A stretch of 64,000 bases of DNA from a virus, in IMG/VR virus record IMGVR_UViG_3300036715_000875, positions 1 through 64,000 of that record; one strand, written 5' to 3'. The position numbers and the translations under genes are program-made. The notes under the pieces are model-generated. The model did no database searches. It was given only the letters and a program-made list of their open reading frames with translations, and had not been told where the DNA came from. This document shows positions 1,963-58,739 of this stretch, in pieces. Position 1 is the first letter of the stretch. Each line of letters starts with the position of its first letter.

Positions 1963-1969
1963 AATAATA

Positions 1970-2662: not shown

Positions 2663-2902
2663 TTATCTCTCCAAGCAATGTTTATTGAATTCAATTGTAG
2701 CATCTTCATAGTTGCCACATTGTAGATATGTACCCATATAGGTACTACAGCCTTTCATTGGGTCTACAGTATAAGACCATATAACATACTTTTGTTCCCA
2801 GTAGCATAACACCTTAGAACCGGTGATCGCTACAACATTCTTACCTTCTTTATTAAGCAGCCGTACAGCTGCTGCCAATGGGCTAAATCCTACTGTTGCC
2901 AT
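2663..2902 (-). CDS. hypothetical early protein (79 aa)
   Basis: SD AAGGAG; translationally coupled. Confidence 0.7.
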   Translation of the reverse strand: MATVGFSPLAAAVRLLNKEGKNVVAITGSKVLCYWEQKYVIWSYTVDPMKGCSTYMGTYLQCGNYEDATIEFNKHCLER

Positions 2903-3831: not shown

Positions 3832-4077
3832 TTACACCTCCAGTAAGTAATTAGCTAATGCTTGTTTAAGGTCGCTATTATAAGCAGCCTTCTTAAGATG
3901 AGTTAGCGGTAATGTGCTATCAATCATGGTTATCAACTCCATGATCTCTTTATTATGCTTAAACTCAGCCTCTTTAGCTACATTAATAGCTACTTCCTTG
4001 ACTTCTTGAGTCGATAGTTCATTATGAGCTGATACATCAGCAACTAAAGCGATAAATAGTAGGGTTGACTGTAACAT
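3832..4077 (-). CDS. hypothetical protein with signal-peptide-like N-terminus (start ATG 4077)
   Basis: SD TTGGAGGT; MLQSTLLFIALVADVSA hydrophobic N-terminus. Confidence 0.65.
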   Translation of the reverse strand: MLQSTLLFIALVADVSAHNELSTQEVKEVAINVAKEAEFKHNKEIMELITMIDSTLPLTHLKKAAYNSDLKQALANYLLEV

Positions 4078-4084
4078 TGTAGTG

Positions 4085-4120
4085 ACCTCCAAGTTCTTTC
4101 AAGTAACATCTCGTATTGTT
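4085..4120 (-). repeat. conserved 36-nt early-gene leader, copy 2
   Basis: 32/36 identical to 1970-2005; a minus-strand TATAAT lies just upstream at 4139-4144. Confidence 0.85.
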
Positions 4121-4294: not shown

Positions 4295-4440
4295 ACCTTT
4301 ACCTCAAATGTTCGCATTGCTTTATAGTTAGACCCTGTATAGCTAGCTATATTGATACGTCTAGCCATCTCACCACTACTGATAAGAGGACAAGCCTTTA
4401 ATATGATCTTCATTAGTTTCTTTTGATCTTTAAGCAACAT
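4291..4440 (-). CDS. small hypothetical protein (49 aa; not in ORF track)
   Basis: SD GAAGGAG; MLLKDQKKLMKIILKACPLISSGEMARRINIASY... Confidence 0.6.
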   Translation of the reverse strand: MLLKDQKKLMKIILKACPLISSGEMARRINIASYTGSNYKAMRTFEVKV

Positions 4441-4594
4441 TTATAACTCCTTCGTTATTATAAGTGACAATTACGCCATCTTCTATACACTCTTTGACTA
4501 TTTCTAGCAACATTAATCTCTTTTCCTCTAAACTAATATCGTTTAGTATCTCTTTTATGTCATTTATTATGACAAGCTCAGTTCTTTCGTACAT
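4430..4594 (-). CDS. small hypothetical protein (54 aa; not in ORF track), first gene of the early arm
   Basis: SD TTGGAGGT; MYERTELVIINDIKEILNDISLEEKRLMLLEIVKECIEDG... Confidence 0.65.
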   Translation of the reverse strand: MYERTELVIINDIKEILNDISLEEKRLMLLEIVKECIEDGVIVTYNNEGVINVA

Positions 4595-4619
4595 TTTGTG
4601 ACCTCCAAGTCAGTTGTTT

Positions 4620-5074
4620 TATTAGAGTCGGATACGGGCGGTATGTCTTTTCTGCATGCGCACGCACCACACACTCTATAGCCCCGCTACGCACCCGGGA
4701 ATTTTTTCCAAAATGGAAGTGGAATTAAGGCCCAATTATTACTATTTTCTGCTCAAATAACTAATACGAACTTATATTTTAACTAAATTCACATTAAATC
4801 TAGCTTAAAGTATATATTTTTCTGGCCCATACGAAAAACTATGCACGGTAGCGTGCTCTGAAAATATTTTTAAAATTTTTTCAGAATATTTTAATACGAA
4901 ATTAACTTAATATGTGTGTTTTCAAATCTGAATCATTTTTTGATTGTTTAAACGTAATTTAATTAAAGTCGATGGCATTCACAACTTATAACAAGTAATT
5001 TGGGGTTATCACTGACACCACACGCTGTAGAACACACAGTTCCTCGGGACAAATTTGTGACTTAAGGCAGGGCC
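4620..5074. other. non-coding divergence region; candidate cos/pac (genome end) site
   Basis: No ORF; GC-rich island at about 4625-4700 followed by an AT-rich tract with phased ATACGAA repeats; directly upstream of terS/terL of lambda-GpA type. Confidence 0.5.
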
Positions 5075-5497
5075 ATGTCTGAAAAGATCATCAGCGCTAA
5101 TATCATCAGAGCTTTACAGAAGCTGAAAAAGGACCCAGGAATGGCGTCCATGCTAGTAGACCCTGATTACATGGAAGAATTCAACCAACTATTTGACGTC
5201 TCCGAGACGAAGAGCCTGGATGAGTTCTCTCTAAAAACAGAATTCGTAGAGACTTATAAGATATTAAAAACAATGTTGCAGGAACTTGCGCTATCTAGCG
5301 AAAAAACAACTGACGACTTGAAAATTCTAAACTCTGCACAGAAGTTTTTAGAGTTCATTCTCAAGAATGAAGCTACGTTAAATGGCATTGACAGTGTCAA
5401 AAACTTTAAGGAAGCGGTATTTACCATCTTAGATGAGGCATCGCCAGAATTAAGAGACACCGTCATCACCAAATTGAACGAATTGGTAGAGGCATAA
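5075..5497 (+). CDS. probable terminase small subunit
   Basis: 140-aa helical protein directly upstream of terL (positional call). Confidence 0.55.
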   Translation: MSEKIISANIIRALQKLKKDPGMASMLVDPDYMEEFNQLFDVSETKSLDEFSLKTEFVETYKILKTMLQELALSSEKTTDDLKILNSAQKFLEFILKNEATLNGIDSVKNFKEAVFTILDEASPELRDTVITKLNELVEA

Positions 5498-5499: not shown

Positions 5500-7134
5500 G
5501 TGGCTAGAGGTAATACTAAAACCACAGCTGTACTCAACAATTTTGTCAGTGAAGTTAATGCTAGATATGGCCGCGGTGACCTGAGCCTTAGTTCATCAGA
5601 TTGGGTAGTTAAATATACCAAACTGAAGGGTGTACATTACTCATTTCTAGACCATGAGTTCCAAAAGGCCATCATTGATGACCCTAACCCTCAAGTAATT
5701 GTGAAGAAGTGCGCACAAGTAGGTTTGTCGGAAGTAATGGTCCGACAAATCGTCTCTTTCCTTGCTCGTAATCAAGGTCTTACCGCTATTATAACTCAGC
5801 CAACACGGAAGAACGCACTAGACTTCTCCACCACCCGTATCGACGATATTCTTAAAGAATCACCACTACTCCACGCAATGCTAGATAGTCAAGTCGACTC
5901 TAAAGAGCTAAAGAAGCTGGGAAAATCATATATGTATATTAAAGGGACAATAGGAGCTAAATCAGCGATTTCCGTTCCGGCAGATATGCTAATTCATGAT
6001 GAGCTAGACTTCTCTGATCTTGATATTATCAATAAGTATTCGTCACGTGTCCAACACTCCAAGTATAAGATCTTCAAAAAGTTCTCTACGCCAACTATCC
6101 CTAACTTTGGGATAAGTAAAGAGTTTGATGTATCAGATCAAAAACATTATATGATGAAGTGTAAGCACTGTGGCCACTGGGGTATACCGTCATTCTTTAA
6201 TGATGTTGTTGTGGATAATCCGGCCTTCGCTGATAAGCCTCTTGAGTTAATTACTCACGACGACTTGGCGTATATACAGCCTAGTCAAGTGCACACGCTA
6301 TGTCCAAACTGTCGTAGACCGGTCACTTACCATGACTATACTAAGATGGAATGGGTAGCTACGTATCCAGGCCGAGCAATCTCAGGCTATCAGGTCTCGC
6401 CATTTAACACGCCATTCCAAGACCCTTATAGCTTGATCAAGATGATGAATACATATACGCGCTATGCTGACTTTGTTAACTTCTCTCTTGGTATGGACTA
6501 TGTTGATGCCTCGGCTATATTTGATACATCAAGGTTTCAACAAGCTGCCCTTGGTATTGCTCATAGCTATGGCCTCTTTATGGGTATTGACTTTGGTAAG
6601 AAGTGCTGGATAGTCATTGGCCAAAAGAACCTTAGAGGAGAAACACTCATCTATAAAGCTGAGAGTGTCTCTGAGGAACAAATTATATCTAAGGTAGTAG
6701 AATATACACGTGCATATCACATTGCAGGGCTTTGTGTGGATGCCTTGCCACAGACCAAGCTATCACGAGAAGTGTGTGAAGCTGCTGATTGTCCAGCCTA
6801 TACAGTGTACTATTCTGACATACAGAAGGACCTATATAACATTAAAGCTAATGAGATTGATGTAACTGTGAATAGAACTCAGCTCTTTGATACGATACTG
6901 GGAATACCAAAGCTAGTTGTTGACGATAAGATTGACGATAAGCAATACCTAAATCACCTTCAAGGGATGGTTAAACAACGTGATCTAGAAGATGAACATA
7001 AGTATAGATACGTTAAGGTTAAGGATGACCACTTACTCCACGCAACAGGTTATATGGCCCTTGCAGAGACTATATTTGGAAACTCTTCTAAGAAGTTTGC
7101 AATGCCTACTATTGATACAACTATATTCCAATAA
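5500..7134 (+). CDS. terL: terminase large subunit, lambda GpA-like
   Basis: Walker A-like KCAQVGLSE, Walker B IHDELD, STPT motif, CxxC...CPxC zinc finger, nuclease GIDFG and C-terminal DDHLLHA. Confidence 0.92.
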   Translation: MARGNTKTTAVLNNFVSEVNARYGRGDLSLSSSDWVVKYTKLKGVHYSFLDHEFQKAIIDDPNPQVIVKKCAQVGLSEVMVRQIVSFLARNQGLTAIITQPTRKNALDFSTTRIDDILKESPLLHAMLDSQVDSKELKKLGKSYMYIKGTIGAKSAISVPADMLIHDELDFSDLDIINKYSSRVQHSKYKIFKKFSTPTIPNFGISKEFDVSDQKHYMMKCKHCGHWGIPSFFNDVVVDNPAFADKPLELITHDDLAYIQPSQVHTLCPNCRRPVTYHDYTKMEWVATYPGRAISGYQVSPFNTPFQDPYSLIKMMNTYTRYADFVNFSLGMDYVDASAIFDTSRFQQAALGIAHSYGLFMGIDFGKKCWIVIGQKNLRGETLIYKAESVSEEQIISKVVEYTRAYHIAGLCVDALPQTKLSREVCEAADCPAYTVYYSDIQKDLYNIKANEIDVTVNRTQLFDTILGIPKLVVDDKIDDKQYLNHLQGMVKQRDLEDEHKYRYVKVKDDHLLHATGYMALAETIFGNSSKKFAMPTIDTTIFQ

Positions 7135-14251: not shown

Positions 14252-14526
14252 ACCTACTATTAGAGGCTAACTCAGATAGTCTATTTCTATGGCTCTATGA
14301 TTATAGAACCGAAGACTATATGAAAGCTTCATTTATCCTCTCTTTAAACCAACTGAAAAAAGCCGCTTCCTTCAAATTGGAGATGACCAACAGCGCGCTT
14401 TATGATAAGTTCTTAATAATAGCAAAAGCATTTGGTAATGAAGTTAAAACGAACGATAGCAGAGCAGCCAGTAGGCTTCCTCCAGCGAGTTTTGAAGGTC
14501 TAGCCACATTTTTAGGGAGTATGTAA
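14170..14526 (+). CDS. -1 frameshift extension of the tail chaperone (gpGT-like)
   Basis: The -1 frame is open from 14170 (FFFPESAAPSEDNGE...) through the ATG at 14320 to the stop at 14526. Confidence 0.8.
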   Translation, partial: FFFPESAAPSEDNGEVTEREISEYSSINLLLEANSDSLFLWLYDYRTEDYMKASFILSLNQLKKAASFKLEMTNSALYDKFLIIAKAFGNEVKTNDSRAASRLPPASFEGLATFLGSM

Positions 14527-17500
14527 TGGAGTTTAATGCCAGAGACCTAATAGGTCAAATTATGGGAATAAAGAATGCCCAAGACGCTACCCAAGTTAGA
14601 GCAAGACTTAATAGTCTTAAAGGCAAAGTTACAGATACTCAGTATAATCAATTAACTAACGCATTAGAGTCAAAAACTAAAAATATGCCAAGTAACCCTA
14701 TAGGTAGACAGAGTAATGTAGACTTGAATAGCCTACAATGGGGAACTCCAAATATTGTTCAGCAAGCTAATGAGCTAAAGAGAAGTGCAGCTCTAGAGCA
14801 ATTAGCTCTAGATAAGCAAGTAGCTATGGATAATCTTATAGCTAAGACTACAGATCATGGCAGATCAATAACTCCAAATAAACCAAATAACTCTAGATAT
14901 AAGCCACTTAATCCAGCTGTAGCACCATATAGTACCTTAACTAAAGATACAAGTATATCTTGGGAAGTTAATGAGTTTTTAACTCGTTACTTTACTCAAA
15001 AGTCAGGGCTATCTGCAGATACTCAGTGGAAAGCGTTCGTTAGAGGTAGTAGTATGCCAAAGGGCATGCAGTACAATAGTAACTTAGAGCAACAGGTTCT
15101 TCAAGAGGTTAAAGCTTTAGAAGACCGCCTAGGTGGCTCAAATCAGGCAAAACAACACTTTAGTGGTATGTCATACCAGTCTACTGTGAGAGAAATCGAA
15201 GGTGTTAAAGTAGCTCTTAATACAGCTTTTTCTAATGATAAGAAGACTGCACTACTCTTCGCGCTAGATAAAGGCAATGAGGATACACTATCTAAGTCTT
15301 TAGCTCAGATGTTTAGCTTATATAAAGGCTTAGAAAAGATTGAAGTGGCTACTAAGTCAGGGGTTAAGACTTTTACACGAGATAGCAATATTATCTCTGG
15401 ACCTACTACTGATAATCTATTACAAGGTAAAGCTAAACTTGCGCAGAATGCTAATAGACTTAAGAAAGATCATATAGGTACAACAAACTATTATAAGCCA
15501 ACTCAAGCTGCAAAGACTACGTATGAGAATACTCAAGCAGAACTTCAGGCTATAGCACTTAAGCAACTTGAAGATCTATCTAAAACTGCAGTAGCTACTA
15601 TGCCAGTGGGAGTACTAGAAAAGTTTTTAGCTCATACCAAAGTAAAAGATTTAAAGAAGTATGGGTCATACTTTGGAGACCAGTTTAGTAAGTTAGCTCA
15701 GTATTCACTAAGTGATAATAATACTTTAAGTCAGACTTTATCCCCTGAGCAGGTTAAAAACATAAGACTAGCAACTGCTAGAAATCGTGCAGAAGAGTAT
15801 GCTGTACATGCTAGAGCAGCTCAGAAGCAAACTGTTAACCTAGGTAGTGAACTAGGGGTAAGTAAAAAGGCTATTATCACTGAGGCGAGTAAAAACCTTG
15901 GGCGAGATACTACAAAGCATCTAGAAGCACTACACGCTATTAACTCATTTTTTACAGAGTCTAAGCATGATGCTATAGCCTATGCTAGACAAACTGGAAG
16001 TAAAGAAACAAATCCTCAAGCCCTCTTTGATAAAAAGTATCCTGAGCGTATTGGGTTCTTAGACCTAATGAAAAGTTCAAGGCCAGAGGTTTATAAGTCT
16101 GCGGTATCAATGCTAATGGCAAATAAAAATAATAGAACTTGGTTAGAGTCGAGAGGCTTATTAGCTGAGAATACAGCTAACCCAATTCTTAACCTTAAGG
16201 GACTTGTACAAGAGAAGTTTACTAGAGTATTAGCTAGATCAATTTCTGATAATCCAAATTCTATAGATGGTAGAATGGACCCAGAGCTATTAAACTTATT
16301 ATCAAGTAAAGCACTAGGCCATGCTAATAAGATATTTGAGAGTGAACGTAATGTAGCTTCTCCAGTTGGAGCACTAGCTGTAAAGAAATTTGAGGGCCGT
16401 TTAATAGATAACCTTAATGATATGGTAGAAGGCCAGAAATTTGCTAAGGTGTATAACTCTGCAGGGTTCACACAAGTTGTTAATAAAACTCTAATGGGTG
16501 ATATTGACCTAGGTGATACAGTAGCCAATAGGGCTGAGCAGCAAGAAAAACTTCAGCAAGAGAGTTCTAGAATTTTTAGTGACATGATTAAAAATCATGA
16601 GGGTAAAGTTAAAGTTCAAGCTCTAGAGCAAATGAAGCAACAAGCTCATGAGCAGGCTATGTTTAACCTAGGCCTCGACTCTGACGGTATGCAGATTGAA
16701 ACCTTAAGTCTTAAGGAAAAATTCTTTGGTGCTCAATCTCAAGTTAATATTGGAAAACTGCTTAAAGCTAAGAATCTAGATAAAGTTAACTCAAGTAAAT
16801 TATCAGAGTTTGATCAACTACAGATAAAGATGGCCAAAGGTACAATGACTATTGAAGACCATAAGAATCTTATGGATACTGCAGCTGCACTTGGTATAGG
16901 TAATTCTAGTAATTTTGGCTCTATTGGTGGACTTCAGAAGATAATTAAAGGGCTTAGAGAAGGCCAGTATGAGTTTAACGCTTTAACTGTTGAGGGTAAG
17001 GCTGATCTTAGTTCTCCTAGAATTCATATTAGTAAAGAACTTCGTAAGAGTATTCTAGAAGGCTTTTCTTCTGACCCTAAGATTAATAAGCAACAACTAG
17101 CGGAGTATAATAAACTTGGATTATATAATGAAGTAGATGGAAGACTTGAAGTGTCTAAGATTATGAAGACAGCTTCTGAGTCAACTCTTATGATGGTTAA
17201 AGGGTCTCCAGAGGATAAAAAGACTAGACAGTACTTAACTGAGTATTTTGCTGGGTTAGATGTAGATCAACTTACAGTTGGAGAAAAGAAAAGAGCTGTA
17301 GCTATCCATACAGCATTAGCTAGTGGTGCAGCTGTAACTCAAAAGATGGTAGATATTAGAAAAAATGCTCAAGTAAAAGCTGACCCTCATAATATGATTG
17401 AAAATATGTATAATACTCTTAGCTTAGACCCTAAGAACGCGCAGTATACAACACTAAAAGCCTCACAACATAGTATTCTTAGAAAGAAGTCTGAGCTTAC

Positions 17501-20500
17501 CGATCAAGCGTTACAAAATATGCTTAAGTATGATTCAGTTAAGCAATTTTATAATAACCCAGAAGTAGCCGGTAAAGTTGATGGGTTCTACGCAAGTGTA
17601 CCAGTAGATGGAGCAGAGACTAACAAACTAATATCACGCTTAGGTGAGTTTGGAACTTTAGAGACAAGTAAGTTGAGAGACTTTAGAGGTATGAAGCTAA
17701 ATGATAAACTTAACCTAGTTGGTAAGGCTTTACATATAAAGTACCTAGATAGTCTAGGCACAGATGCTAATGGTAATAAGGTACATACAGCTAGATCAAT
17801 AGCATACTCTTCAGCTATGAATAAACTATCAGGAGATATAGCGTCTCTAACTAGTGGTCAAGTAGGCCGTACAGCAAAGCTTGATATAGTTAGTAAGCTA
17901 CGAGGCACCCCAGTAGCAAGCTTAGTATCCCAAAAGTACTTAGAGAATGAGATGGCTAATACAATAGCGTTTGCTCATTTAAACACTGGAGGAGACCGTA
18001 AGTTCCAGTTAGGGGATATAGTTGATGACTTATCTAAGGCAAGACTAAAAGCAGAAGCCCTAACTAACATAGAGCGTGACTTTGGTATACATAGAGAGGG
18101 TCTTGGAGCAGTTCAGTACCCATTTAAAGCATTAGCTGGACAAGGTACAACTGAGTTGAGAGCTTCTAGACTTAGTATGTTAGACTCACTTAGTAATGCA
18201 AGCCCTCTGGGTGGGCAGTTCTATGATAGTATAGACTTAGACCCAGGCGCATTAGGCTATGTAGCTAAAAGCACTAGGGAGGTAGCTATTAATAATCATA
18301 AGAGAAACCTAGCTACCTCAGCCCTTATGAAGGGTAGACAAGTAGAACTACCTTCTGAAGAACCTAGGCTAAGACCATTCATAAGAGCAGCTAGAGAAGG
18401 TAAAGTTAAGTTCTCAGCAACTGATCTACTAGAACTAGCTAAGCATGTACCATTCTTACGCTTAGCTACTGGAGGAAAGATTCCAGGTAAAGGCCATGTT
18501 GATGAAGTTCCTGCGCTATTAATGAAAGGTGAAATGGTAGTTGATAGAGCTACTACAGAGAGTTTAGGGATTCATACAAATAGCGATTATAAAAGATTTA
18601 AGCAAGCAATAGCTAATGGTAAAGTCAAACACTTTGCAGAGGGTGGTATGACAGATGAGGAGAAGCAAAAAATTCAAGATGCACTACTATCTCAAGGCAT
18701 TAGCCTAGAGTCAGCAGCTAAGATTCTAGAAAGTAGTGTTGGTAAGGCTCCTGGGGCTCGCCTAGGAGAGTCAGTACTAAGTCTAGGAGATGAACCTGAG
18801 TATAACCATACTCCTGCGGCAGTTGCTGTAGATAATGGAGTTAAGCCAAAAGCTCCTAGTGCATTGAAAGCTATTAATACTGATACCATAGCTAAAAAGA
18901 CTGAGAGTGCGAATGCTTTTAGGGAACTAACTAACCAGCTTAAACGAGGAACAATACTTGACGCTGCAACAATGCTTAGCCCTAAGAATCTTCTAGAACT
19001 AGAACAAGCTCATGGTTCAGGCTTTGTAAGTAAGCTGAAACCTTACCAAGAGTTAGTAGCTAATAGTGGTAGCTTATCTAAGGTAGACTCAATTGAGTCT
19101 ATATTATCAGTTAATAACTCTTCATCTTTAGGGGCAGATCAAGCGGCAATACTTAAGAAGATTAGTAGTAGTAAAGCGCAGACTCTTAATATAAAAGAGA
19201 GAACTGACTCAGCTAATGCAGACTTTGTTAGTAACATGAATAATACGGCTATGAATGAGTTAGCTGAAATGTGGAAAGACCCTCGTAAAGCTAAGAACAT
19301 GATGAGTAGAGTTCTAGAGGCTGAGACAACAGCTACTAATCCTAAGACAGTTAAAAATGTCTCTGATATGAAAGTAAAGATGACTGAGCTAATGCTAGGT
19401 TCATCTTATGGTGAAGTAACAGACGCTTTAAGAAAAGGTGATACTAGCACACTATCACCTTTAGGTAGAGCCGCTCTTGATGGACTATCATCTAACTCAC
19501 AGCAGTTACAAGACTTTAAGAAAGTAGCTACTCCAGATATAGCTGAAGGTGTGCATAAGTATTCTGGAGCCAAAGATGATGGGCTAACAAACGCTATGAA
19601 GCTTGTTAATAATAACTTAACTGAGGTGTCTAAGATTCTTAGAACTGAGGCTAAGCCAATAACTAATAGAGCTGAGTTTAACCAGTTTATAGGCGAGGTT
19701 CTTAAGAATAATGCTGATGGAGGTTTCACTGCAGCTAATGTTGATGGTGGAGCTAAAGGGGCAGCAAAAGCTAAAGATATGTTTAATACTCTAAAAGGTG
19801 GTATTGATAAGAATCAAGACTTTGACTCTTACCACTCTATGGGTGAAATGGGTAGACAAGCAGAGTCTGTACAGCGAATCAAAGAGTCATCACAAATGCG
19901 ATGGGCGAACTTTAAAGACTTAATGGTACAAAATACAGCCTTCGCAGCTTCATATGCAGTACTTGGTGGGGCTACTAGTTCAATAGTTGGAGCTACTCAG
20001 TTTATAGTTAATCTTGATGAGAAGATGAAAAACTTACAAGCTATTACAGGGTCCACTACTCCTGAAGTAGCTAAGATGGCAAGTACTATTAAAGAGGTAT
20101 CAACTCAAACTAAGTTCTCAGCTGGAGAGATTGCTGATGCGGCAACAGTTCTAGGGCAAGCTGGGTTTAGTGCGCAAGATATTTCAGAGTCTCTTGGTGG
20201 GGTTGTTAAGCTAGCAACAGCTACAGGGTCCAGCCTAGATGAGGCTACACAAACATTAACATCAGCCCTAACAATTTGGGATGCTCCTATGAAGGCCTCA
20301 GAGAGCTATGCTAATGAGTTTACAGCAGCAATCAATAAGTCTAAGCTTGATATTAACTCTCTAGGTATGGCATTACAGTATTCAGGTAGTATTGCTGCTG
20401 AAGGTGGTATACCTGTAGAAGACCTTGTAACTGTTACATCTCTAATGAAAGATGCGGGGGTTAAGTCAGCATCAACTTCTGGGACAGGCCAGCGATTAGT

Positions 20501-23500
20501 CTATAGTGATATTTTAGCCCCGTCGTCTAAGTTCACTAAGTCTCTAGCTCAAGTAGGTATAACTAAGAAACAAATGGGTGAAAAGTTTGATGAAGAAGGC
20601 GTACTTGGTGTCTTGAAGCTGATGCGTGATGAAGGGTATGGCTTTGGGCAAGCAACCTCTGGTATGGAAGTTCGTGAGAAGTCCGCCTACTTAACAGTAG
20701 CGGGGCAACTTGATAGAGCTAGTAACTTTAGATCAAGTATTATGGGGACTAATGCAGCTGGAGACGCTAATAAGGTTCAAATGTCTTCTCTAGCTAATCA
20801 AACTAAAAATATGTTTAACTCTTGGGGTATTGCACTAGATACTATGGCTGGAGATAAGTTATCCTCTGTTGGAAGATTCTTTGAAGCTATTACATATTCT
20901 CCAAATAAGACTAATAACTTACAAGTTGGAGCAGGAGTAGACTACTATAAAGAGACCCAAGATGGGATTAATGGAGGAAACTCTGGAGTAGGCGGAGCAA
21001 TTATTGGGGGACTAGCTATAGGTGGAGCTGGATATGCCTTACATAAGTTTGCTAAGAATAACCCAGGTGGAGGCCTAGGTAAGATAGGGAGTAAACTCTA
21101 CTCTCCTCCTATAGAAGGTGGAGGGTTTAAAACCGCTTCAGGTGGGTTCTTTGGTGGGGCAGTAGATAAATTTAAAGGCTTATCAGTAGGGGCAAAAGCA
21201 GGTGGAGCCTTAGGTATATTAGAGACTGGGTATAACTTAGTTCAAGCTAGTCAGTCTAAAACACCAGTTAGAACATTTATTCAGGATATGATGCCAACCT
21301 TAATAGGCATAGCTACTGCGGCTATAGCAGCCCCTCTTCTAGGCTTAGGAGCAGTTGCAGCTGGGGGTGTAGGAATCGGTGCAAGTTTATTAGGTGGGTC
21401 AGCTCTTAAAGGTAGTACTGATAAGGCTGTTGATAAAGTAGGTAATTTCTTTGGGACAGACTGGGGCAAGCCAACAGGTAACGAAATTCTACAAGACGCT
21501 GGAGCTCGGTTAGCGGGAAGTAAGTCTACTCTTAGTGACTTATATAAATACGAGAACGCTGTAGGTAAGGCAAAAAATAACCCTTTAAGAGATGGTAAAG
21601 ACGCTACAGAGGCAGATAAGGCTATTACTAGGTCTAATATAACTAAGCAGGGGTTACAATTTAATGAGTCATTTAAGGCTGAAATAGACCAGCTAGAGAA
21701 AGCAACTGGCCAAGTAACAGACTTCTCTAATGCAGGAAGTGCTGATGAGTTACAGAGCCAGCTTAAAAGCTTTAGAAAAAGCTTTAAAGAGAATATAGTA
21801 GTCAAGTCATTTAAACCTATGATGGAAGCTTTAGAAAAGACTTCAGCAACACCTATAGAAGACCTTACAGGTAAAACTGTAGGAGATGCTACTAAAGCTG
21901 CAGAGAGTAAGATAGGCTCTACACTTGCTAACTTAGCAACAGTAGCACCTGAGTTGCTTCTAGCTCAAGGTAAAGAACTAGATAAGGTAACTAGAAAGTA
22001 TTTTGCTGGAGCTCTTAAACAGGATACTAAGCTACTCCAAGATAAGCTAGCTGGAGAAGTCTCTAGTGGTGAGATAACTAAAACTGAGAGTGGTGCTAAG
22101 TATATTAAGGAAAAAGCAAAGCTAACGAATGAAAATACTAAGCGTGAAAAAGCAGTACTTGATAGTAGACGATCTGAAGCATTGACAGGGTATGTTAATC
22201 TTAACTCTTCAGATGAGGTAATGAAGTATGTAGCTGACTTGAAAGGAAACACTGCAAAAGGGGCTATTAGAACAAAAGCTGAAGTAGCAGATAATAAGTT
22301 CACACAAGCTGAGTTTGCTAGTATTGAAAAAGGTTCAGCTACTCAGTACCAAAGACATAGAGAAGAAGAGACTGGGATAGATAAGATTAAAGCTCAGGTT
22401 GTTGAGTTAGTGAATCAGACAGATGAGATTAACCAAGCGTTTAAAAGTTTCTACAAAGATACTATATCTCAAGTTGGCCAGCAAGCAGTAGACCTAGGAA
22501 GAAAGTTTGGTAATACCATGCTTAAGGAAGCTTCAAACCTTGGTAATAGCAATTGGGGTGATACAGCTGGGCTACAACATACTCTAGGGAGTATGGCAGT
22601 AAATGGCCTAAATGAAAAGTATATGAAAACTAGCCCAACAGACCTTGAGTCTAAGAGTGTTATTAGCCTACTTAATAAAAATATTAAGTTTAATACTCTT
22701 GGAGCTTTACAAGCCGGAGGAAATCAAGCTGGAGCTAAAGAGTTTAATGCTATGCTAGCAGCTGAGCCAATTGCAGCAGCTATTGCAGATATGCCTTCTA
22801 CTCTTGAAGGTTTAATTAATAAGCATGGACAAGATCCATTTATGCTTAAGCAGTTTAATGCTAGAAAAGATGCCTTAGAGAATAATGGTATTAATAGAAA
22901 TGTTGATATTGATGCTCTTAAAGGACTAAGCTTCGAAAATATTCTGGCTATGTCAACTAAGCAGAAAGAATCTATAGTTGACCCGCTAGCTAAAAAGAAG
23001 ATGGAGACTAGTAAGAATTTTGAAATTTATCAGCTTGATGCTAAATATGCCTCAATCAAAGAAATGCAAATTGGTGGTAAGAATATTTCTGAAAATCAGT
23101 CTGAAAAAGGCTATGCTCTAAAAGAGAATCATAGGCAGTATGAGTTAGGAATAGCAGCATTCAATAGAAGTCAAGAGTTCCAAAAGACTCAGTTGATGAC
23201 AAACTATTCTAGAAATATAAGGGACTTTAGCGCTAGGATAGACTTCCAGCGCCAAGAAATGGGAATAGGTTTTGCTCAGTCACAAGCAGCAGCTCAAAGA
23301 CAATATGACTTCCAACAGACTATGATAAGGATGCAAGCTGGATGGGCAAAAGCTGATGCGTTAAAAGGGTCAGGAGATAGTAAAGATGATGCAGGTAAGA
23401 AGAGAGACTATGCTATCCAAGACCTAAACCTAAATACTAAGTATAAGACTGAGGATGTTAATAAAGACTTCTCTAGAACAGTAGCGCAGCTGAATACAAG

Positions 23501-25634
23501 CCTTACTAGACAGATAGATGGCATTGATAGAGCTATGCAGTTCTCTAGAGATATGTTTAACCGTAGTATGGATAAGCCAGTTAATCTTACCCTTAATCCA
23601 GCAGCCTTTTTAAAAGTTGCGGATAACTTGAATGATAATACTCTAGCTCTAGATGCCCATAAAGCAGAGCTAGGTGCTAATACTACAGCTATCCAGCAAT
23701 TAGTAGGTCTTCAGCAAACTAAAGAATCTTTAGTAAAAGACGCTTATAAGTATGCTTATAAAAGTGTAGGTGGCGCAGTAACTAATGAAGATGGGACCAC
23801 AAGTGCTAAGTTTACTGAGATGTATGATAAATATATGCAAAATAATAGTGGGCAGTTATTAGATACTGTATTGAATCAGGCAATGAATAAAACTTTCGCT
23901 GGTGCAGGCTTTGATGCAACTAAAGCTCTAACAGACTCTAACTATATTGCTCAGTCAGTTGCGAATCCTGGAGAATCAACTACCCCTGCAGGTATTATGC
24001 AAGGTAGCGGATACTCAGTAGAAGACTTTGTTAATGCCCTATTTAAGGATGGTAGTGGTGAAATCCACGTAACTACATCTCAAGGGGTAGTACTTGAAGC
24101 TCAAGGTAACTTGGCTGGAGCCTTATTTGATTTAGAGACTCAGATGGTAAGCTATCAGAATCAAATATCTGAGGTAGGTATAGCTTTCTCTCAGAATATG
24201 GAGGACGCTAGACTATCGCTTAAGTATTCTTTAGATGATATAGCTACCGCTTATCAAAGAGGTCTTGATGCTATCAATACAGCCTATGCTAGAGATATTG
24301 AACAAATTAGTGATTCTTTACAGCGCGCTATGGAAGCTATCTCTACTAACCTGGATAGACAGGCAGAGTCAGCTGCTTTACAACATCAGTTCCAAATGCA
24401 AGAGGCTGCTATACAGTTCCAGCAAGCTTTAGAAGCTCTATCTAGACAAGAGGCATTTAATAAAGCACAAATGGAGCAAGGGCTTAAAGATGCTCTTACT
24501 GACTTAGCATCAACAGCAGAGTTTAAACTTGGGGAATCGGCTATAAATAATGACCAGAATATAATTAGTATTAACGATCAGTTCGGCAGGCTTATAGAAA
24601 AGCTTGACTTACAAAAAGAAGAAAACATTAGAGCTCTTGAGCAACAGTATAATGATACTCTATCTAAAGTTATAATAGATGCCCAAATAATGCTAGAGAT
24701 GTTTAATAGATCATTAAAGGCTGCATTAACTGAGCAACTACCAGATCTAGCTTATGCAGTTAAGTCTATTGAAGGAGGGATAAATAAAGCTGCAACTGAA
24801 ATGGACTGGAAGTTTGCAGGGGCAATTAAAGCTATCTCTGAAGGCTGGGATAAGGCATTCAAAGATGATGCAACATCTAAGGCTATTAGAGAACTTGGTG
24901 GGGCTACTCTTAGATCAATAGTTGACTCTATGGGTAAAGACCAAGATACAACTATTAAGGATGTCTGGGCTAAGTATGATGAGCCTATTAAGAACGCCTT
25001 TAAAGCCTCATATGACTCATTAGCAACTAATGTACAAACAGCGGCTACTGAGTCAGGAAAGAAAATTGTAGAAGCGGCAGCTGTAGTTCAGCAAAACTCA
25101 GTAGCACTAGACCAAGCATTAACTAAATTAACCACTTTTGGTGAAGCTAGAAGCTCTGACTTAACAAATATGACAACAACGCTAGCTAGTTTAGCAAGCA
25201 CAACTATAAATGCTATGTCTACAATGGCTACACAAATAGCGGCTGCAAGAGATTCTATAGCTCGTGCAGCATCAGCTGGAACAGGATATAACACTGGAGG
25301 GGCAATACCAGGGTATGGTGGAGGAGACTCAGTCCCAGCTATGCTAGAACCTGGTGAGTATGTACTACGTAAAGAGGCTGTAAGGTCTTTAGGAATAGAC
25401 TATGTGGCTGGACTAAATAATTCAATAGTCGGGGCTAAGCTTGGTGATGGATTGTCATCAATATCTATCAAGAATGTAACAAGTTTACCAACGCAAGCCA
25501 CAGAGGCTAAAAGTGGTGATAGTAATATCTCAGTAGGTATTTCAGTTCATCCAGAGATGACTATTAGGTCTATCCAGGATAATATAGAAAAGATTGCTGA
25601 TGGGGTTCATAAAGTATTTCAGGAGTATATGTAA
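14526..25634 (+). CDS. giant tape measure protein (3702 aa)
   Basis: TP901-family tape-measure core at about 19950-20850 (T.FSA.EIA.A...LGQAGF, LA.ATG..L.EA); Gly-rich hydrophobic segments; long Q/A-rich helical repeats; GG.IPG.G..D.VPA.L..GE.V motif. Confidence 0.9.
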   Translation: MEFNARDLIGQIMGIKNAQDATQVRARLNSLKGKVTDTQYNQLTNALESKTKNMPSNPIGRQSNVDLNSLQWGTPNIVQQANELKRSAALEQLALDKQVAMDNLIAKTTDHGRSITPNKPNNSRYKPLNPAVAPYSTLTKDTSISWEVNEFLTRYFTQKSGLSADTQWKAFVRGSSMPKGMQYNSNLEQQVLQEVKALEDRLGGSNQAKQHFSGMSYQSTVREIEGVKVALNTAFSNDKKTALLFALDKGNEDTLSKSLAQMFSLYKGLEKIEVATKSGVKTFTRDSNIISGPTTDNLLQGKAKLAQNANRLKKDHIGTTNYYKPTQAAKTTYENTQAELQAIALKQLEDLSKTAVATMPVGVLEKFLAHTKVKDLKKYGSYFGDQFSKLAQYSLSDNNTLSQTLSPEQVKNIRLATARNRAEEYAVHARAAQKQTVNLGSELGVSKKAIITEASKNLGRDTTKHLEALHAINSFFTESKHDAIAYARQTGSKETNPQALFDKKYPERIGFLDLMKSSRPEVYKSAVSMLMANKNNRTWLESRGLLAENTANPILNLKGLVQEKFTRVLARSISDNPNSIDGRMDPELLNLLSSKALGHANKIFESERNVASPVGALAVKKFEGRLIDNLNDMVEGQKFAKVYNSAGFTQVVNKTLMGDIDLGDTVANRAEQQEKLQQESSRIFSDMIKNHEGKVKVQALEQMKQQAHEQAMFNLGLDSDGMQIETLSLKEKFFGAQSQVNIGKLLKAKNLDKVNSSKLSEFDQLQIKMAKGTMTIEDHKNLMDTAAALGIGNSSNFGSIGGLQKIIKGLREGQYEFNALTVEGKADLSSPRIHISKELRKSILEGFSSDPKINKQQLAEYNKLGLYNEVDGRLEVSKIMKTASESTLMMVKGSPEDKKTRQYLTEYFAGLDVDQLTVGEKKRAVAIHTALASGAAVTQKMVDIRKNAQVKADPHNMIENMYNTLSLDPKNAQYTTLKASQHSILRKKSELTDQALQNMLKYDSVKQFYNNPEVAGKVDGFYASVPVDGAETNKLISRLGEFGTLETSKLRDFRGMKLNDKLNLVGKALHIKYLDSLGTDANGNKVHTARSIAYSSAMNKLSGDIASLTSGQVGRTAKLDIVSKLRGTPVASLVSQKYLENEMANTIAFAHLNTGGDRKFQLGDIVDDLSKARLKAEALTNIERDFGIHREGLGAVQYPFKALAGQGTTELRASRLSMLDSLSNASPLGGQFYDSIDLDPGALGYVAKSTREVAINNHKRNLATSALMKGRQVELPSEEPRLRPFIRAAREGKVKFSATDLLELAKHVPFLRLATGGKIPGKGHVDEVPALLMKGEMVVDRATTESLGIHTNSDYKRFKQAIANGKVKHFAEGGMTDEEKQKIQDALLSQGISLESAAKILESSVGKAPGARLGESVLSLGDEPEYNHTPAAVAVDNGVKPKAPSALKAINTDTIAKKTESANAFRELTNQLKRGTILDAATMLSPKNLLELEQAHGSGFVSKLKPYQELVANSGSLSKVDSIESILSVNNSSSLGADQAAILKKISSSKAQTLNIKERTDSANADFVSNMNNTAMNELAEMWKDPRKAKNMMSRVLEAETTATNPKTVKNVSDMKVKMTELMLGSSYGEVTDALRKGDTSTLSPLGRAALDGLSSNSQQLQDFKKVATPDIAEGVHKYSGAKDDGLTNAMKLVNNNLTEVSKILRTEAKPITNRAEFNQFIGEVLKNNADGGFTAANVDGGAKGAAKAKDMFNTLKGGIDKNQDFDSYHSMGEMGRQAESVQRIKESSQMRWANFKDLMVQNTAFAASYAVLGGATSSIVGATQFIVNLDEKMKNLQAITGSTTPEVAKMASTIKEVSTQTKFSAGEIADAATVLGQAGFSAQDISESLGGVVKLATATGSSLDEATQTLTSALTIWDAPMKASESYANEFTAAINKSKLDINSLGMALQYSGSIAAEGGIPVEDLVTVTSLMKDAGVKSASTSGTGQRLVYSDILAPSSKFTKSLAQVGITKKQMGEKFDEEGVLGVLKLMRDEGYGFGQATSGMEVREKSAYLTVAGQLDRASNFRSSIMGTNAAGDANKVQMSSLANQTKNMFNSWGIALDTMAGDKLSSVGRFFEAITYSPNKTNNLQVGAGVDYYKETQDGINGGNSGVGGAIIGGLAIGGAGYALHKFAKNNPGGGLGKIGSKLYSPPIEGGGFKTASGGFFGGAVDKFKGLSVGAKAGGALGILETGYNLVQASQSKTPVRTFIQDMMPTLIGIATAAIAAPLLGLGAVAAGGVGIGASLLGGSALKGSTDKAVDKVGNFFGTDWGKPTGNEILQDAGARLAGSKSTLSDLYKYENAVGKAKNNPLRDGKDATEADKAITRSNITKQGLQFNESFKAEIDQLEKATGQVTDFSNAGSADELQSQLKSFRKSFKENIVVKSFKPMMEALEKTSATPIEDLTGKTVGDATKAAESKIGSTLANLATVAPELLLAQGKELDKVTRKYFAGALKQDTKLLQDKLAGEVSSGEITKTESGAKYIKEKAKLTNENTKREKAVLDSRRSEALTGYVNLNSSDEVMKYVADLKGNTAKGAIRTKAEVADNKFTQAEFASIEKGSATQYQRHREEETGIDKIKAQVVELVNQTDEINQAFKSFYKDTISQVGQQAVDLGRKFGNTMLKEASNLGNSNWGDTAGLQHTLGSMAVNGLNEKYMKTSPTDLESKSVISLLNKNIKFNTLGALQAGGNQAGAKEFNAMLAAEPIAAAIADMPSTLEGLINKHGQDPFMLKQFNARKDALENNGINRNVDIDALKGLSFENILAMSTKQKESIVDPLAKKKMETSKNFEIYQLDAKYASIKEMQIGGKNISENQSEKGYALKENHRQYELGIAAFNRSQEFQKTQLMTNYSRNIRDFSARIDFQRQEMGIGFAQSQAAAQRQYDFQQTMIRMQAGWAKADALKGSGDSKDDAGKKRDYAIQDLNLNTKYKTEDVNKDFSRTVAQLNTSLTRQIDGIDRAMQFSRDMFNRSMDKPVNLTLNPAAFLKVADNLNDNTLALDAHKAELGANTTAIQQLVGLQQTKESLVKDAYKYAYKSVGGAVTNEDGTTSAKFTEMYDKYMQNNSGQLLDTVLNQAMNKTFAGAGFDATKALTDSNYIAQSVANPGESTTPAGIMQGSGYSVEDFVNALFKDGSGEIHVTTSQGVVLEAQGNLAGALFDLETQMVSYQNQISEVGIAFSQNMEDARLSLKYSLDDIATAYQRGLDAINTAYARDIEQISDSLQRAMEAISTNLDRQAESAALQHQFQMQEAAIQFQQALEALSRQEAFNKAQMEQGLKDALTDLASTAEFKLGESAINNDQNIISINDQFGRLIEKLDLQKEENIRALEQQYNDTLSKVIIDAQIMLEMFNRSLKAALTEQLPDLAYAVKSIEGGINKAATEMDWKFAGAIKAISEGWDKAFKDDATSKAIRELGGATLRSIVDSMGKDQDTTIKDVWAKYDEPIKNAFKASYDSLATNVQTAATESGKKIVEAAAVVQQNSVALDQALTKLTTFGEARSSDLTNMTTTLASLASTTINAMSTMATQIAAARDSIARAASAGTGYNTGGAIPGYGGGDSVPAMLEPGEYVLRKEAVRSLGIDYVAGLNNSIVGAKLGDGLSSISIKNVTSLPTQATEAKSGDSNISVGISVHPEMTIRSIQDNIEKIADGVHKVFQEYM

Positions 25635-37294: not shown

Positions 37295-39583
37295 ATGCCT
37301 AAAATTAGAGACTGGACTTGGCAATATGGTACAAGTACAAGTGCTACTACTATTGCCTGCGCACTACCATCATATCAACAGAATGATTTATTATTGGCAG
37401 TATGTAGTGCAGATACAGGAACTACGCAGGCATGGTCTGCTTCTGGTTGGACACAATATCTATCACAGTCAAACACATCTAACCTCGCAATAATGTATAA
37501 GATTGCTAGTGCATCTGAGACAGCCCCTACATTCACATACTCTAGCTCTGAAACTGCTGACGTAAGACTATTATCAATTATGGATATAGATACGACTACG
37601 CCATTTGCAGCCAATAGTAATCTAAGTACAGCAGCAGCTCGGGTAGCTATGTCTACTGTTGTTACGACCAGAGATAACTCATTGATATTATATATGGTCG
37701 CTACTAGTGCGGTATCTGTACCAGAGATTATTGAGGGGGCTGTTACTCTTGAAATGGGTTCTGATGGTACAGCACACTCTGATGGGTTATCTTGGGGGTT
37801 TCAGGCAAAAGCTGGAACTACTCCTAGTAATATCTATATGACAAATATTTCAGCCTCGGCTGCAATAGCGTTTACAGTAGCTATTAATCCCCCTAGTGGT
37901 GGGGCTACTGTAATACCTTCCTATTGTGCAGGGGACTTATCAATATACATTGACCCTATCAACGGTACTTCAGCATATAATGGAAATACTGCTTTTGCTG
38001 CAACTACTACAACATATTTTGGGTCAACATTAGCAGGTAATCCATTAGGAAATGGTACAGCTGCTGCAGCAACTGACGTTGGGATTAACTCCTTTCACTC
38101 TATGGGACAATTAACAGGGGTTGTAACTGATGGTACATATTCTGGGTCTACACTAGTCTTAGCTACTGCTAATAAACCTAGTGTTGCTGGTAAAAATATA
38201 TTATTACACGTAAAAACTTCAACACCAAAGGTTATTCAAACTACTGACCCAATTACAAAAGCAACCACAAAGGGTCTTGTTTTTGGTATGTGTAGTGTAG
38301 CAAATACAGACTATAAAGTATGGCACGTACATGGCGCTGGTACTGCTTGGGATAGTGCGTCACATCTTCCTATTGTTATTAATAGTAATGCAACAGGTGG
38401 ACTTATTCAAAATACTGGAACACTTAATGCAGCATCTATTCTAGCATTTGGTGTAGCTATTTCTGGATTTACTATAGCCCCTATTTGGCAGTTTGGGTCA
38501 CTTTGGGTATTAGATACTACAACTATAGCTGGAGGTAATGCTGTTCAACCAGTTGATATTGGAGGTATTTGGAAAGTATGTTCATCAGGTAAAGAGAGAA
38601 TGAGTGTTCTACAACAGGGAGCTTCTCAAGCCCTTGTTTTACAGCCTATTCAATTTGGTAATGGTGGAACAGATGCGCTTTACTTAGACCTAAGAGAAAC
38701 AGCTATTGAGTTTCCACAGCAGTATAACGTTACTAGTAGAAATATATTCTATTGCTCTGCAGATAATGTGGCTGGATTAACATATTATGCTGGAGCAACC
38801 GATACTATTATTCATAAAAATGCTGTTGTATCTAGTAAGTCAAAATTCCACTGGAGAATTAGTGCGTTATCTAGCACTAGTGCTACTTATGACTTTAGTG
38901 GGCTATCAATAATTGGAGCTGGAGATGTAGTTCTTAGGGCTGTAACTACTTTTAATAAAATGAGCTTTACAACTTGCCCATCAATTACACAGAATGGCGC
39001 GCTCATAACAAATAGTACTTTTACTAACTCCCAAATAAGTATGGATAATTTAGGGCAAATGTCTGGGTGTACACATATATCTACAGCCACTGGTTATGCA
39101 ATTATAATTACAACCCCAGGAACTTATACCTTTACAAATAATGTATTTACAGGCTATGGAGCTGCAGGTACAACTAATGCAGCTATCTATAATAACTCCG
39201 GTGGGGCAGTAACTATTAATGTTATTGGAGGTAGTGGAATTACAGTTAAGAATGGTACTTCAGCTACAACTACACTTGTAATTAACCCAGTAACTACTTT
39301 AATCACAGTTAAAGATATTAATACAGGGGCTGTATTAGTAGGAGCCAGAGTTTATTTAGCAACTTCTGGAGGGGCTTTAGGAACTGGTGTGGTTATCTTT
39401 AATGCTTTAACAAATACTAGTGGTCAAGTATCAGATACTAGGTCATATATAAGTGACCAACCTGTTACTGGAAGAGTTCGTTTCAGCACTTCTCCAAACC
39501 TTTATAAGACGGTGCCAATTTCTGAAACAATTAGTAGTACAAGTGGGCTGACTTTAAATATATCTATGATACCAGATGTATAG
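37295..39583 (+). CDS. fibre/adhesin-like structural protein (762 aa)
   Basis: T/S/A/G-rich; DLLLA...GWT..YKIA...E..PTF adhesin-like N-terminus; beta-helix-like stretch; Ig-like C-terminus. Confidence 0.55.
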   Translation: MPKIRDWTWQYGTSTSATTIACALPSYQQNDLLLAVCSADTGTTQAWSASGWTQYLSQSNTSNLAIMYKIASASETAPTFTYSSSETADVRLLSIMDIDTTTPFAANSNLSTAAARVAMSTVVTTRDNSLILYMVATSAVSVPEIIEGAVTLEMGSDGTAHSDGLSWGFQAKAGTTPSNIYMTNISASAAIAFTVAINPPSGGATVIPSYCAGDLSIYIDPINGTSAYNGNTAFAATTTTYFGSTLAGNPLGNGTAAAATDVGINSFHSMGQLTGVVTDGTYSGSTLVLATANKPSVAGKNILLHVKTSTPKVIQTTDPITKATTKGLVFGMCSVANTDYKVWHVHGAGTAWDSASHLPIVINSNATGGLIQNTGTLNAASILAFGVAISGFTIAPIWQFGSLWVLDTTTIAGGNAVQPVDIGGIWKVCSSGKERMSVLQQGASQALVLQPIQFGNGGTDALYLDLRETAIEFPQQYNVTSRNIFYCSADNVAGLTYYAGATDTIIHKNAVVSSKSKFHWRISALSSTSATYDFSGLSIIGAGDVVLRAVTTFNKMSFTTCPSITQNGALITNSTFTNSQISMDNLGQMSGCTHISTATGYAIIITTPGTYTFTNNVFTGYGAAGTTNAAIYNNSGGAVTINVIGGSGITVKNGTSATTTLVINPVTTLITVKDINTGAVLVGARVYLATSGGALGTGVVIFNALTNTSGQVSDTRSYISDQPVTGRVRFSTSPNLYKTVPISETISSTSGLTLNISMIPDV

Positions 39584-52459: not shown

Positions 52460-53044
52460 TTATAAGCGATGTAGGATGCCAAATTTTAGACCTAATACTA
52501 CCTGATCTTTCTTAGAAAGACCTCTAATGTATTCTAAGACTATCTCAAAGCGTTCATCTTCTATAACATCATCAAGCGTAGTATCAAAAGTGCTCGCTCC
52601 AAAGTCTAGCTGCTCTTCACTTTCATAGTTAGACATATTTTCTGTACTGAGTCCAAGAACTAGTTCAACTATATGTAACTCTATACTAAGTTCAGTAGCT
52701 ATTAATATAGCTTCTGGCTCGCGTTCATGTGTTAGTAGATACTTATCAATGTACTTATAAATCTTGAGCTTAAAGTTAACTATATGGCTAGGAAGTCTTA
52801 TAGTTCTAGACTTATTAGTTAAGGCTTCTATGATAGCTTGCTTACACCAGAAGTTAGCATAGGTAGAAAACTTAGTACCAAATGATGGGTCATATCGTCT
52901 AGCCGCTTTAATTAGGCCAATATTACCTTCCTGTACTAAGTCTTCATATGGAATATTCCTACTGCTATACTGTCTAGCCTTTATCTTAGGTATATGTAGA
53001 TGAGTCTCAATTAGTGTGACTTGTTCAAATGTTAGAGCTTCCAT
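52460..53044 (-). CDS. sigma70-family factor (regions 2, 3 and 4.1; no 4.2 HTH)
   Basis: DLVQEGNIGLIKAA.RYDP..G.KFSTYA.FW..QAI; IRLP.H; ends at LS.....VL.LKFG. Confidence 0.9.
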   Translation of the reverse strand: MEALTFEQVTLIETHLHIPKIKARQYSSRNIPYEDLVQEGNIGLIKAARRYDPSFGTKFSTYANFWCKQAIIEALTNKSRTIRLPSHIVNFKLKIYKYIDKYLLTHEREPEAILIATELSIELHIVELVLGLSTENMSNYESEEQLDFGASTFDTTLDDVIEDERFEIVLEYIRGLSKKDQVVLGLKFGILHRL

Positions 53045-57949: not shown

Positions 57950-57996
57950 AGGGTTACCTTTTTTCTTTAATGTGATTTCACTTTGTATACTATAAT

Positions 57997-58039
57997 AAAA
58001 AACCGGTGGCATACCGTAAATAACGATACGCTACCGGTT
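57997..58039 (-). terminator. intrinsic terminator
   Basis: AACCGGTAGCGTATCG...CGGTATGCCACCGGTT long stem running into a T6 tract. Confidence 0.75.
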
Positions 58040-58221
58040 CAGGAGGTGAACGACTACGCTCTTAGAAGCATATTGCAAACGTCGTCTTGGGTACTCAATA
58101 ACTTGGAGGTCTTTTTGAGTGATCTTTTATATCGAAGGAGATCGAATATGCACGATTCGACCTAACAGAGAGATAAAATCTGTTAGGCCTAAACCTACAT
58201 AAGTAGGTGGAACAGAGAGGA
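57997..58221 (-). ncRNA. candidate multi-hairpin antisense sRNA ending in an intrinsic terminator
   Basis: Seven consecutive stem-loops; G-U pairs mostly favour the minus strand; loops complementary to early-gene RBSs. Confidence 0.6.
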
Positions 58222-58695
58222 TTAAACCTCGTCTGAACCTTCAACTTCAGGAGCAGCTTCTTCAGCTGGAGCTTTTTCAGCTTTTTCTTTCTTCGCTTTT
58301 TTACGAGCAACAACCGGCATTGAACGCTGCTTCATCCAGTTAGCGTACCAGCTGATTGAGTTAGCTGTTGTATCAACACCTTCAGTTTCAGAAAGGAACT
58401 TAGCGAGTTCGCCATAGCTCAAATGCTCAAGAGAGTCATCTTGAAGAACTTTAATTGTCAAGAACGCTTTTGTTTGTGGGTTCTCACCGAGTGTACGACG
58501 ACGGCTCATTTTAACAACGTTACCTTCAGCATCAATAGTGAACCCATTCTCATTTAAGAATGCAACAAGAGCGTCTTTATCACCAGCTTCTTCCAAGTGT
58601 GCAGAGATTTTCTCCAACAAAATTTCTTTTGTATCTTTAGCTTCAATAGCTACGCCTAATTCTGTGGCCCGAACCACTAACTGTGATTTATTCAT
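58222..58695 (-). CDS. putative nucleic-acid-binding protein (Rho-N/SAP-like N-terminus, HTH-like C-terminus, Lys/acidic tail)
   Basis: MNKSQL...A.ELG......TKE.L.EKI; high-expression codon bias; own promoter. Confidence 0.55.
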   Translation of the reverse strand: MNKSQLVVRATELGVAIEAKDTKEILLEKISAHLEEAGDKDALVAFLNENGFTIDAEGNVVKMSRRRTLGENPQTKAFLTIKVLQDDSLEHLSYGELAKFLSETEGVDTTANSISWYANWMKQRSMPVVARKKAKKEKAEKAPAEEAAPEVEGSDEV

Positions 58696-58725: not shown

Positions 58726-58739
58726 ATTATAGCGTAAGT
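58726..58739 (-). promoter_or_regulatory. promoter ACTT-ACGC-TATAAT
   Basis: Motif copy. Confidence 0.75.

Follow-up and report, generated by a model that had tools for sequence, protein, structure and literature searches.

The intergenic segment at positions 57997-58221 (225 nt) is tentatively read here as a trans-acting anti-leader RNA located in the 3′UTR of a middle-class phage message, an interpretation drawn from the sequence to which we would give somewhat less than an even chance. The minus strand of the segment folds into a chain of hairpins closed by an intrinsic terminator, and two of its loops are complementary, beyond chance, to ribosome binding sites (RBS) of early genes of the same genome. 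The RNA would accumulate, pair with these sites in vivo and repress the corresponding genes through this pairing.

The window, i.e. the whole stretch of 64,000 nt that was analysed, corresponds to bases 1-64000 of a 74,883 bp IMG/VR virus record (38% G+C) whose 127-bp terminal repeat is read as the sign of a circular assembly. The rightward structural genes extend from 5075 to 42872. The leftward (minus-strand) genes begin at the divergent region (~4700-5075) and run from 4594 to 269, across the record ends and on to 42861. This leftward block opens with 4.3 kb of small genes, about a dozen in number and lacking any family match, which we name early genes. The genome appears to be of a lytic type with its own sigma factor, encoded at 52460-53044. 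No tRNA or tmRNA genes were found, and searches of the window DNA (distant mode) and protein against the phage GenBank collection gave no match. The tail-gene region features a single ORF of 3702 amino acids (14526-25634), whose equivalent in the related genome G002 (see below) has 4097 amino acids and occupies the same place.

The segment is bordered upstream by a 157-aa gene (58222-58695, minus strand) and downstream by a dUTPase_2-like gene starting at 57949. The elements of the transcription unit are, in the order of transcription:

58726-58739, minus strand: promoter motif ACTT-N4-TATAAT, with the sequence ACTTACGCTATAAT; its TATAAT was found by a sigma-70-type scan.
58222-58695, minus strand: 157-aa gene of unassigned function, an ORF with the SD AAGGA.
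58213-58235, minus strand: stop-codon hairpin CAGA-C-GAGG / CCUC-UCUG with loop UUUAAU, present in the minimum free energy (MFE) structure and of low unpaired probability.
58193-58208, minus strand: hairpin H1, loop UUAU, defined by the fold; target not found.
58159-58189, minus strand: hairpin H2, 11-bp stem and loop UUUUAUCUC, defined by the fold; the start of gene 2299-2661 is a weak candidate partner.
58129-58149, minus strand: hairpin H3, hexaloop UCUCCU, defined by the fold; candidate partner at 512-528.
58093-58120, minus strand: hairpin H4, 16-nt loop with GACCUCCAAGUU, which is complementary to the early RBS tag; defined by fold and complementarity.
58049-58086, minus strand: hairpin H5, G-U pairs in its stem, defined by the fold; target not found.
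58040-58048, minus strand: linker CACCUCCUG, a 16S-like anti-SD sequence directly 5′ of the terminator, mean unpaired probability 0.82.
57997-58039, minus strand: terminator, a 17-bp hairpin followed by U6, with the fold and sequence properties of intrinsic terminators.

The gene thus has its own promoter motif and a terminator after the gap, which defines a unit composed of promoter, one gene, a 225-nt 3′UTR and terminator; the stop codon (58222-58224) and the terminator bracket the segment on the sense strand with no credible ORF in between. This agrees with the initial annotation, which had read the segment as the 3′UTR of a minus-strand gene, and the promoter motif is of the putative middle class. 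The window has six copies of ACTT-N4-TATAAT (0.75 expected), at 52395, 52421 (plus strand), 54463, 58726, 60334 and 63386, and a clear -35 box is absent. The motif precedes the orthologous gene in the related phages L002 and L007, and near variants do so in L003/L004 and L008, i.e. in every relative examined. We consider that it probably represents a middle promoter class, which the phage sigma factor may read. Both the motif and the terminator of the unit are retained in relatives.

No Pfam family was found for the 157-aa protein, and a fold search with its model (pLDDT 80) yielded no match at E 0.001. The protein is basic and the model is helical, with possibly nucleic-acid-binding domains and a weak resemblance to winged-helix regulators. 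A role as RNA chaperone was considered and found to be unsupported, the fold search being empty at E 0.001. A replication origin in the gap was also dropped (no obvious iterons were seen by eye and the location is inside a transcription unit). The ~40 nt that follow the terminator (within 57950-57996), including AAAGTGAAATCACAT, are nearly identical in L003/L004, the remaining gap being unalignable; they probably serve the dUTPase-like gene as promoter or leader, and a TATTAT resembling a -10 box overlaps the terminator's U-tract. When viral contigs were scanned for 15-mers of the conserved post-terminator motif, only unrelated chance matches came up.

The minus strand of the gap has an MFE of -70.4 kcal/mol compared to a mean of -44.1 kcal/mol for shuffled sequences (z -6.05; none of the 200 shuffles was as good), while the plus-strand fold has a z of -3.64. 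Its structure comprises six hairpins and the terminator with 11 G-U pairs, several of them in H5 and in the terminator, that would turn into A-C mismatches on the plus strand and therefore favour the minus strand. The initial annotation had proposed such a chain on this strand, and its hairpins and terminator were found where it had placed them; the exception is the region 58121-58160, where a hairpin exists but the two overlapping ones that had been drawn are replaced by a single one in the MFE structure (H3, 58129-58149). Rfam searches found nothing in the gaps, neither at gathering threshold nor at E up to 1.

The hairpin at the stop codon was noted at the orthologous stop in L002, L003, L004, L007 and L008. 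It is retained with altered arms in L008 (GAAGU/ACUUC) and in L002 (CUGA/UCAG), and L003 and L004 differ in it by a change of G-U to G-C. The alignment of the 157-aa protein has an invariant C-terminal pair of residues (E, V), which perhaps reflects an RNA constraint exerted by this hairpin. The post-stop sequence UCCUCUCU was rejected as an additional anti-SD element as it is the 3′ arm of the conserved stop-codon hairpin.

The sequences complementary to the loops lie in the start regions of four early genes:

4084-4095, minus strand: candidate target of H4 (12/12 nt), in the leader/SD of early gene 3832-4077.
4600-4611, minus strand: candidate target of H4 (11 nt), in the leader/SD of the first early gene, 4430-4594.
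1969-1980, minus strand: candidate target of H4 (11 nt plus a G-U pair), in the leader/SD of early gene 1180-1962.
512-528, minus strand: candidate target of H3 (17 bp with one bulge), from the SD to the AUG of early gene 269-514.

The 12-mer AACTTGGAGGTC, read on the plus strand at 58100-58111 opposite the H4 loop, recurs on the minus strand exactly at 4084-4095 and with one mismatch each at 4600-4611 and 1969-1980; the pattern has four matches in total against 0.28 expected. An 8-nt match, CUUGGAGG, is present in the leader of gene 2902-3351. The pairing of H4 with three early leaders (12/12, 11 and 11 nt) and over 8 nt with this fourth one, as put forward in the initial annotation, is therefore borne out. 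The same is true for the pairing attributed to H3, which consists of 11 nt exact at 518-528, a one-base bulge and AAUAUG (11+6 nt), covering the SD and the AUG of gene 269-514. For H2, said to cover the start of gene 2299-2661, a 9-nt exact match extended by G-U pairing was retrieved but the count of the pattern with one mismatch is at chance level. Its duplex with that early gene's start has -16.9 kcal/mol compared to -13.5 kcal/mol for the best control (~590 control windows). The linker was claimed to copy the 16S anti-SD tail and to match one particular leader: the 16S-like sequence is there but it has no gene specificity, since its best match of 8 nt is the mode for any CTCC site.

Exact 12-14-mers shared by the gap and the whole genome arise at random (five were seen), so that the 12-mer by itself is unremarkable and the location of the match is its unusual part. 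In a plain count, two antisense 11-mers to start regions are found in the gap versus 0.19 expected (p 0.016). A more stringent null keeps the anti-SD core by using the 356 CTCC sites elsewhere on both strands, leaving out sites opposite start regions. Matches of at least 11 nt against any start region are achieved by 3 of these 356 sites versus two of the three in the gap, corresponding to p roughly 2e-4 for the gap and about 0.015 when allowing for all 225-nt windows. Over three genomes, antisense matches of at least 11 nt number six and sense ones none. Fisher's method applied jointly to the three SD-anchored tests yields about 2e-5, a value to be read bearing in mind that these, like all complementarity tests presented here, were framed after the data had been seen.

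CUUGGAG, to which the H4 loop is complementary, is found in 5 of the 12 early start regions versus none of the 86 others (Fisher p 1e-5). The five best duplex partners of this loop include early genes only (-23.0 to -13.4 kcal/mol), compared to -14.8 and -13.6 kcal/mol for the best controls (foreign start regions and 400 internal windows, respectively), and the best partner of H3 is gene 269-514 with -25.1 kcal/mol versus -20.8 kcal/mol for the best control. For H1, H5 and the linker no specific partner was identified by duplex energy against start regions. An accessible anti-SD sequence with complementarity beyond chance is hence a property of H4 and H3, not of the linker, H1 or H5, and two of the four pairings initially annotated, those of H4 and H3, exceed chance. 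The idea that each target has an address loop of its own is applicable to two loops and perhaps to a third; neither H1 nor H5 has a target, and the anti-SD of the linker is generic.

Pairing energy is not discriminating when the RNA is treated as a whole: duplexfold of the complete RNA gives a mean of -19.4 kcal/mol for start regions versus -19.9 kcal/mol for internal windows. When G-U pairs and bulges are allowed, the start-region partners found for 12 random 225-nt segments have energies of -18 to -23.7 kcal/mol versus -23.5 kcal/mol for the gap, and in sliding-window comparisons of own-minus-foreign energies random segments go up to -7.2 versus -8.0 for the gap. Random segments achieve similar duplex energies, and energy alone is thus without power to single out the gap. 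The signal is in matches that are anchored at the SD, located in loops and specific to the own genome.

The 157-aa protein has 17 relatives including itself (57-100% identity). Comparison was made with seven fetched loci and two whole related genomes, G001 and G002; the loci of the closest protein relatives, P0002 (89%), P0003, P0005, P0006, P0010, P0011 and P0013, were outside it. A scan of genome contigs with the protein alignment found no relative. The gap 3′ of the orthologous gene measures ~200 nt in L003/L004 (80% protein identity), ~550 nt in G001 and ~310 nt in G002, and these long gaps fold well (z -6.8, -4.3 and -3.8); the most distant relatives, L002 and L006, have gaps of 120 and 80 nt with the terminator only. 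The long 3′UTRs are syntenic but their sequence is not kept: only the 3′ arm of the terminator and ~40 nt beyond it can be aligned with the window. In L003/L004 this 3′ arm is conserved, with compensating changes in the 5′ arm, and CACCUCCU is found directly before the terminator as well. Comparison of L003 with L004 reveals no differences in the 450 nt of the gene and four in the 3′UTR, all structure-neutral: a double compensatory change of C-G to U-A, the G-U to G-C change in the stop hairpin, a loop insertion and the length of an A-run. Such changes next to identical genes indicate that the minus-strand structure is under selection while its sequence moves fast.

Complementarity to own start regions was also found in the two related genomes. 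The 3′UTR of G002 has, just 5′ of its last hairpin, a 14-nt element complementary to the region from the SD to position -1 of gene 37611-37880, which belongs to the early block and adjoins the divergent region; among 317 control sites, only two attain 14 nt. G001 has an 11-nt match that covers an SD, but that of a gene on the late strand; another 11-mer matches a leader common to early genes. When start regions were swapped between phages, the four long-matching sites, which have 11, 12, 11 and 14 nt in their own genome, matched only 7-9 nt in foreign ones (7-8 nt for the window's sites on the start regions of the two related phages, 8-9 nt for the sites of the relatives); the other three sites behaved as generic. 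Covariation of loops and targets in relatives, which the initial annotation had proposed to look for, was not detected column by column because the 3′UTRs cannot be aligned. The four sequencing runs listed with the stretch are all DNA and show 0 differences, so that there is no microdiversity with which covariation could be tested. The stretch derives from metagenomes of microbial mat and sediment.

The early leaders themselves share more than the SD. The sequence UGAAAGAACUUGGAGGU is found twice in the window (1969-1987 and 4084-4102) and the early leaders of G002 (40.1-40.7 kb) share CUGAAAGAAUAAAGGAG, the part UGAAAGAA being thus common to both phages; CCAAAUCAAAC is common to the early leaders of G001 and G002. 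Separately, the 96-kb related phage L002 has at 5721-5965 (minus strand) a weak match to a group I intron (22 bits, E 0.084), below gathering score.

The strongest competing explanation, which we hold to be rather unlikely, is that the tail is purely structural: hairpins and terminator would end transcription and protect an abundant message against 3′ exonucleases, and CU-rich loops meeting purine-rich starts would give the anti-leader matches as by-products. The terminator is indeed strong and conserved, the pairing energy is unexceptional among random segments, the linker, H1 and H5 are without specific targets, loop sequences are not conserved in relatives, and L002 and L006 cope with a terminator alone. 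However, one hairpin is enough for termination or protection, yet compact phage genomes retain 200-550 nt at this place. By-products would also fit poorly with SD-anchored matches that are rare elsewhere (the 3 sites among 356 above) and own-genome-specific in three phages, and with long matches that are exclusively antisense.

It is improbable that the tail serves instead as a protein-binding platform, whether for the co-encoded basic 157-aa protein (in autoregulation or in an RNP) or for a host RNA-binding protein, with the CU-rich loops as protein sites. The gene and its long 3′UTR do co-travel in relatives under one promoter, and the helical model with its possible nucleic-acid-binding domains, weakly resembling winged-helix proteins, could accommodate such a role, but RNA binding finds no backing in any fold or family match, a loop motif common to the relatives would be expected and is absent, and the own-genome-specific matches to start regions are left unexplained. 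Slightly less probable still is an origin in the opposite strand or in the history of the DNA (real or decayed plus-strand starts, be they mini-ORFs with SD and ATG, decoys for a start-binding factor, a CsrA-type GGA-loop sponge or inverted leader remnants): the plus strand of the gap does carry four SD-like motifs, one of them properly spaced to an ATG with a 5-codon frame, and a similar SD-ATG-CAC mini-frame is read opposite the G002 3′UTR, but no sigma-70-type promoter was found upstream of the gap on that strand, Rfam returned no CsrB/Rsm or other match, the plus fold is weaker and has A-C mismatches for G-U pairs, the replacement of G-U by G-C in L003/L004 is consistent with the sense strand, and two distinct leader copies with a spacing of 22 nt cannot both be left over from whole genes. 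A CsrB/RsmZ-type sponge was rejected on the same absence of an Rfam match, weaker plus fold and lack of plus promoter, and because relatives have just 1-2 GGA-type motifs. The SD, proper spacer and ATG-CAC frame of 4-5 codons observed at 58133-58165 (plus strand) and opposite the G002 3′UTR may be a coincidence or a mini-ORF.

Several described RNAs resemble the anti-leader RNA proposed here. Staphylococcus aureus RNAIII and other C-rich-loop sRNAs of Firmicutes are multi-hairpin molecules whose pyrimidine-rich loops pair with the SDs of several mRNAs and block initiation. The phage RNA has the same architecture of several hairpins with pyrimidine-rich loops predicted to face several SD regions; it differs by its mutually different loops, by the extended gene-specific leaders, by its 3′UTR location and by having the phage's own early genes as candidate targets. 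It does not belong to RNAIII, as no Rfam match and no sequence or structure homology were found. The enterobacterial 3′UTR-derived sRNAs CpxQ, DapZ and SroC share their terminator with the mRNA and have a single-stranded seed just 5′ of the terminator hairpin. The terminator is likewise shared with the mRNA in the phage unit, and the CACCUCCU linker precedes it here and in L003/L004, but the phage RNA has several candidate seeds and not one. Among phage RNAs, P22 sar is an antisense RNA that masks an RBS and acts in single-target immunity control of a temperate phage.

The Cuckoo or CcsR (alpha-r14) RNAs of Alphaproteobacteria consist of 2-4 adjacent hairpins with variable stems and anti-SD loops, each with CCUCCUCCC (PMC4615179). 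Anti-SD motifs in the loops of adjacent hairpins are shared with them; membership was discarded since the gap lacks CCUCCUCCC, its loops differ from one another and there is no Rfam match. In S. aureus, the icaR mRNA has a long 3′UTR with an anti-SD motif that pairs with the message's own SD region and blocks initiation (PMC3868564). The phage tail also places an anti-SD motif in a long 3′UTR of bacterial type, but self-pairing as in icaR was rejected: the start region of gene 58222-58695 has no match of 9 nt or longer, and it appears among the top five partners per element only as the fifth of H1 (-7.7 kcal/mol, within control range). Unlike in icaR, the best partners lie ~20 kb away along the circular map and not in the own message. 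The c4 RNA of the temperate phages P1 and P7 is an antisense RNA masking an RBS for single-target immunity control (PMC12197685). As in c4 and sar, the RNA is phage-encoded with loops complementary to the surroundings of the RBS of a phage mRNA; those RNAs have one target adjoining the RNA gene, whereas a multi-target temporal switch is proposed here for an apparently lytic-type genome. Our literature search found no description of a lytic-phage RNA of this anti-leader 3′UTR type.

The anti-leader reading can be formulated as follows. A monocistronic middle-class message would be made from the promoter at 58726-58739, with the 157-aa gene, the folded 3′UTR and the terminator at 57997-58039, and its 3′UTR would act in trans, either within the mRNA or once processed. 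The open loop of H4 would pair with the CUUGGAGG-type RBSs that mark early genes, including the first gene past the early promoter region, H3 would pair with the stretch from the SD to the AUG of early gene 269-514, and H2 may do so with gene 2299-2661. The pairing would hide the SD and the start codon from 30S subunits, and synthesis of early proteins would fall once the middle class is on. The candidate targets are named to the base, and the case is thus directly testable.

Beyond this phage, the unit might exemplify a fast-evolving class of phage 3′UTR "address-loop" RNAs, a generalization from sequence comparison that we regard as possible rather than probable. Each phage would have a private early RBS tag (CUUGGAGG here and UAAAGGAG in G002), complements of the tag and of single early starts would sit in the tail loops of a middle message, early translation would be shut off by one RNA, and loops and leaders would co-evolve. 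Shut-off of phage early genes is known mainly at the level of transcription or by mRNA cutting, as done by T4 RegB, which cuts GGAG in early SDs. If the proposal is true, masking of a private early RBS tag by a phage RNA would add a third route of shut-off, one based purely on RNA, and would account for the odd, extended leaders common to the early genes of many uncultured phages. Such RNAs could serve as compact multi-gene translational off-switches.
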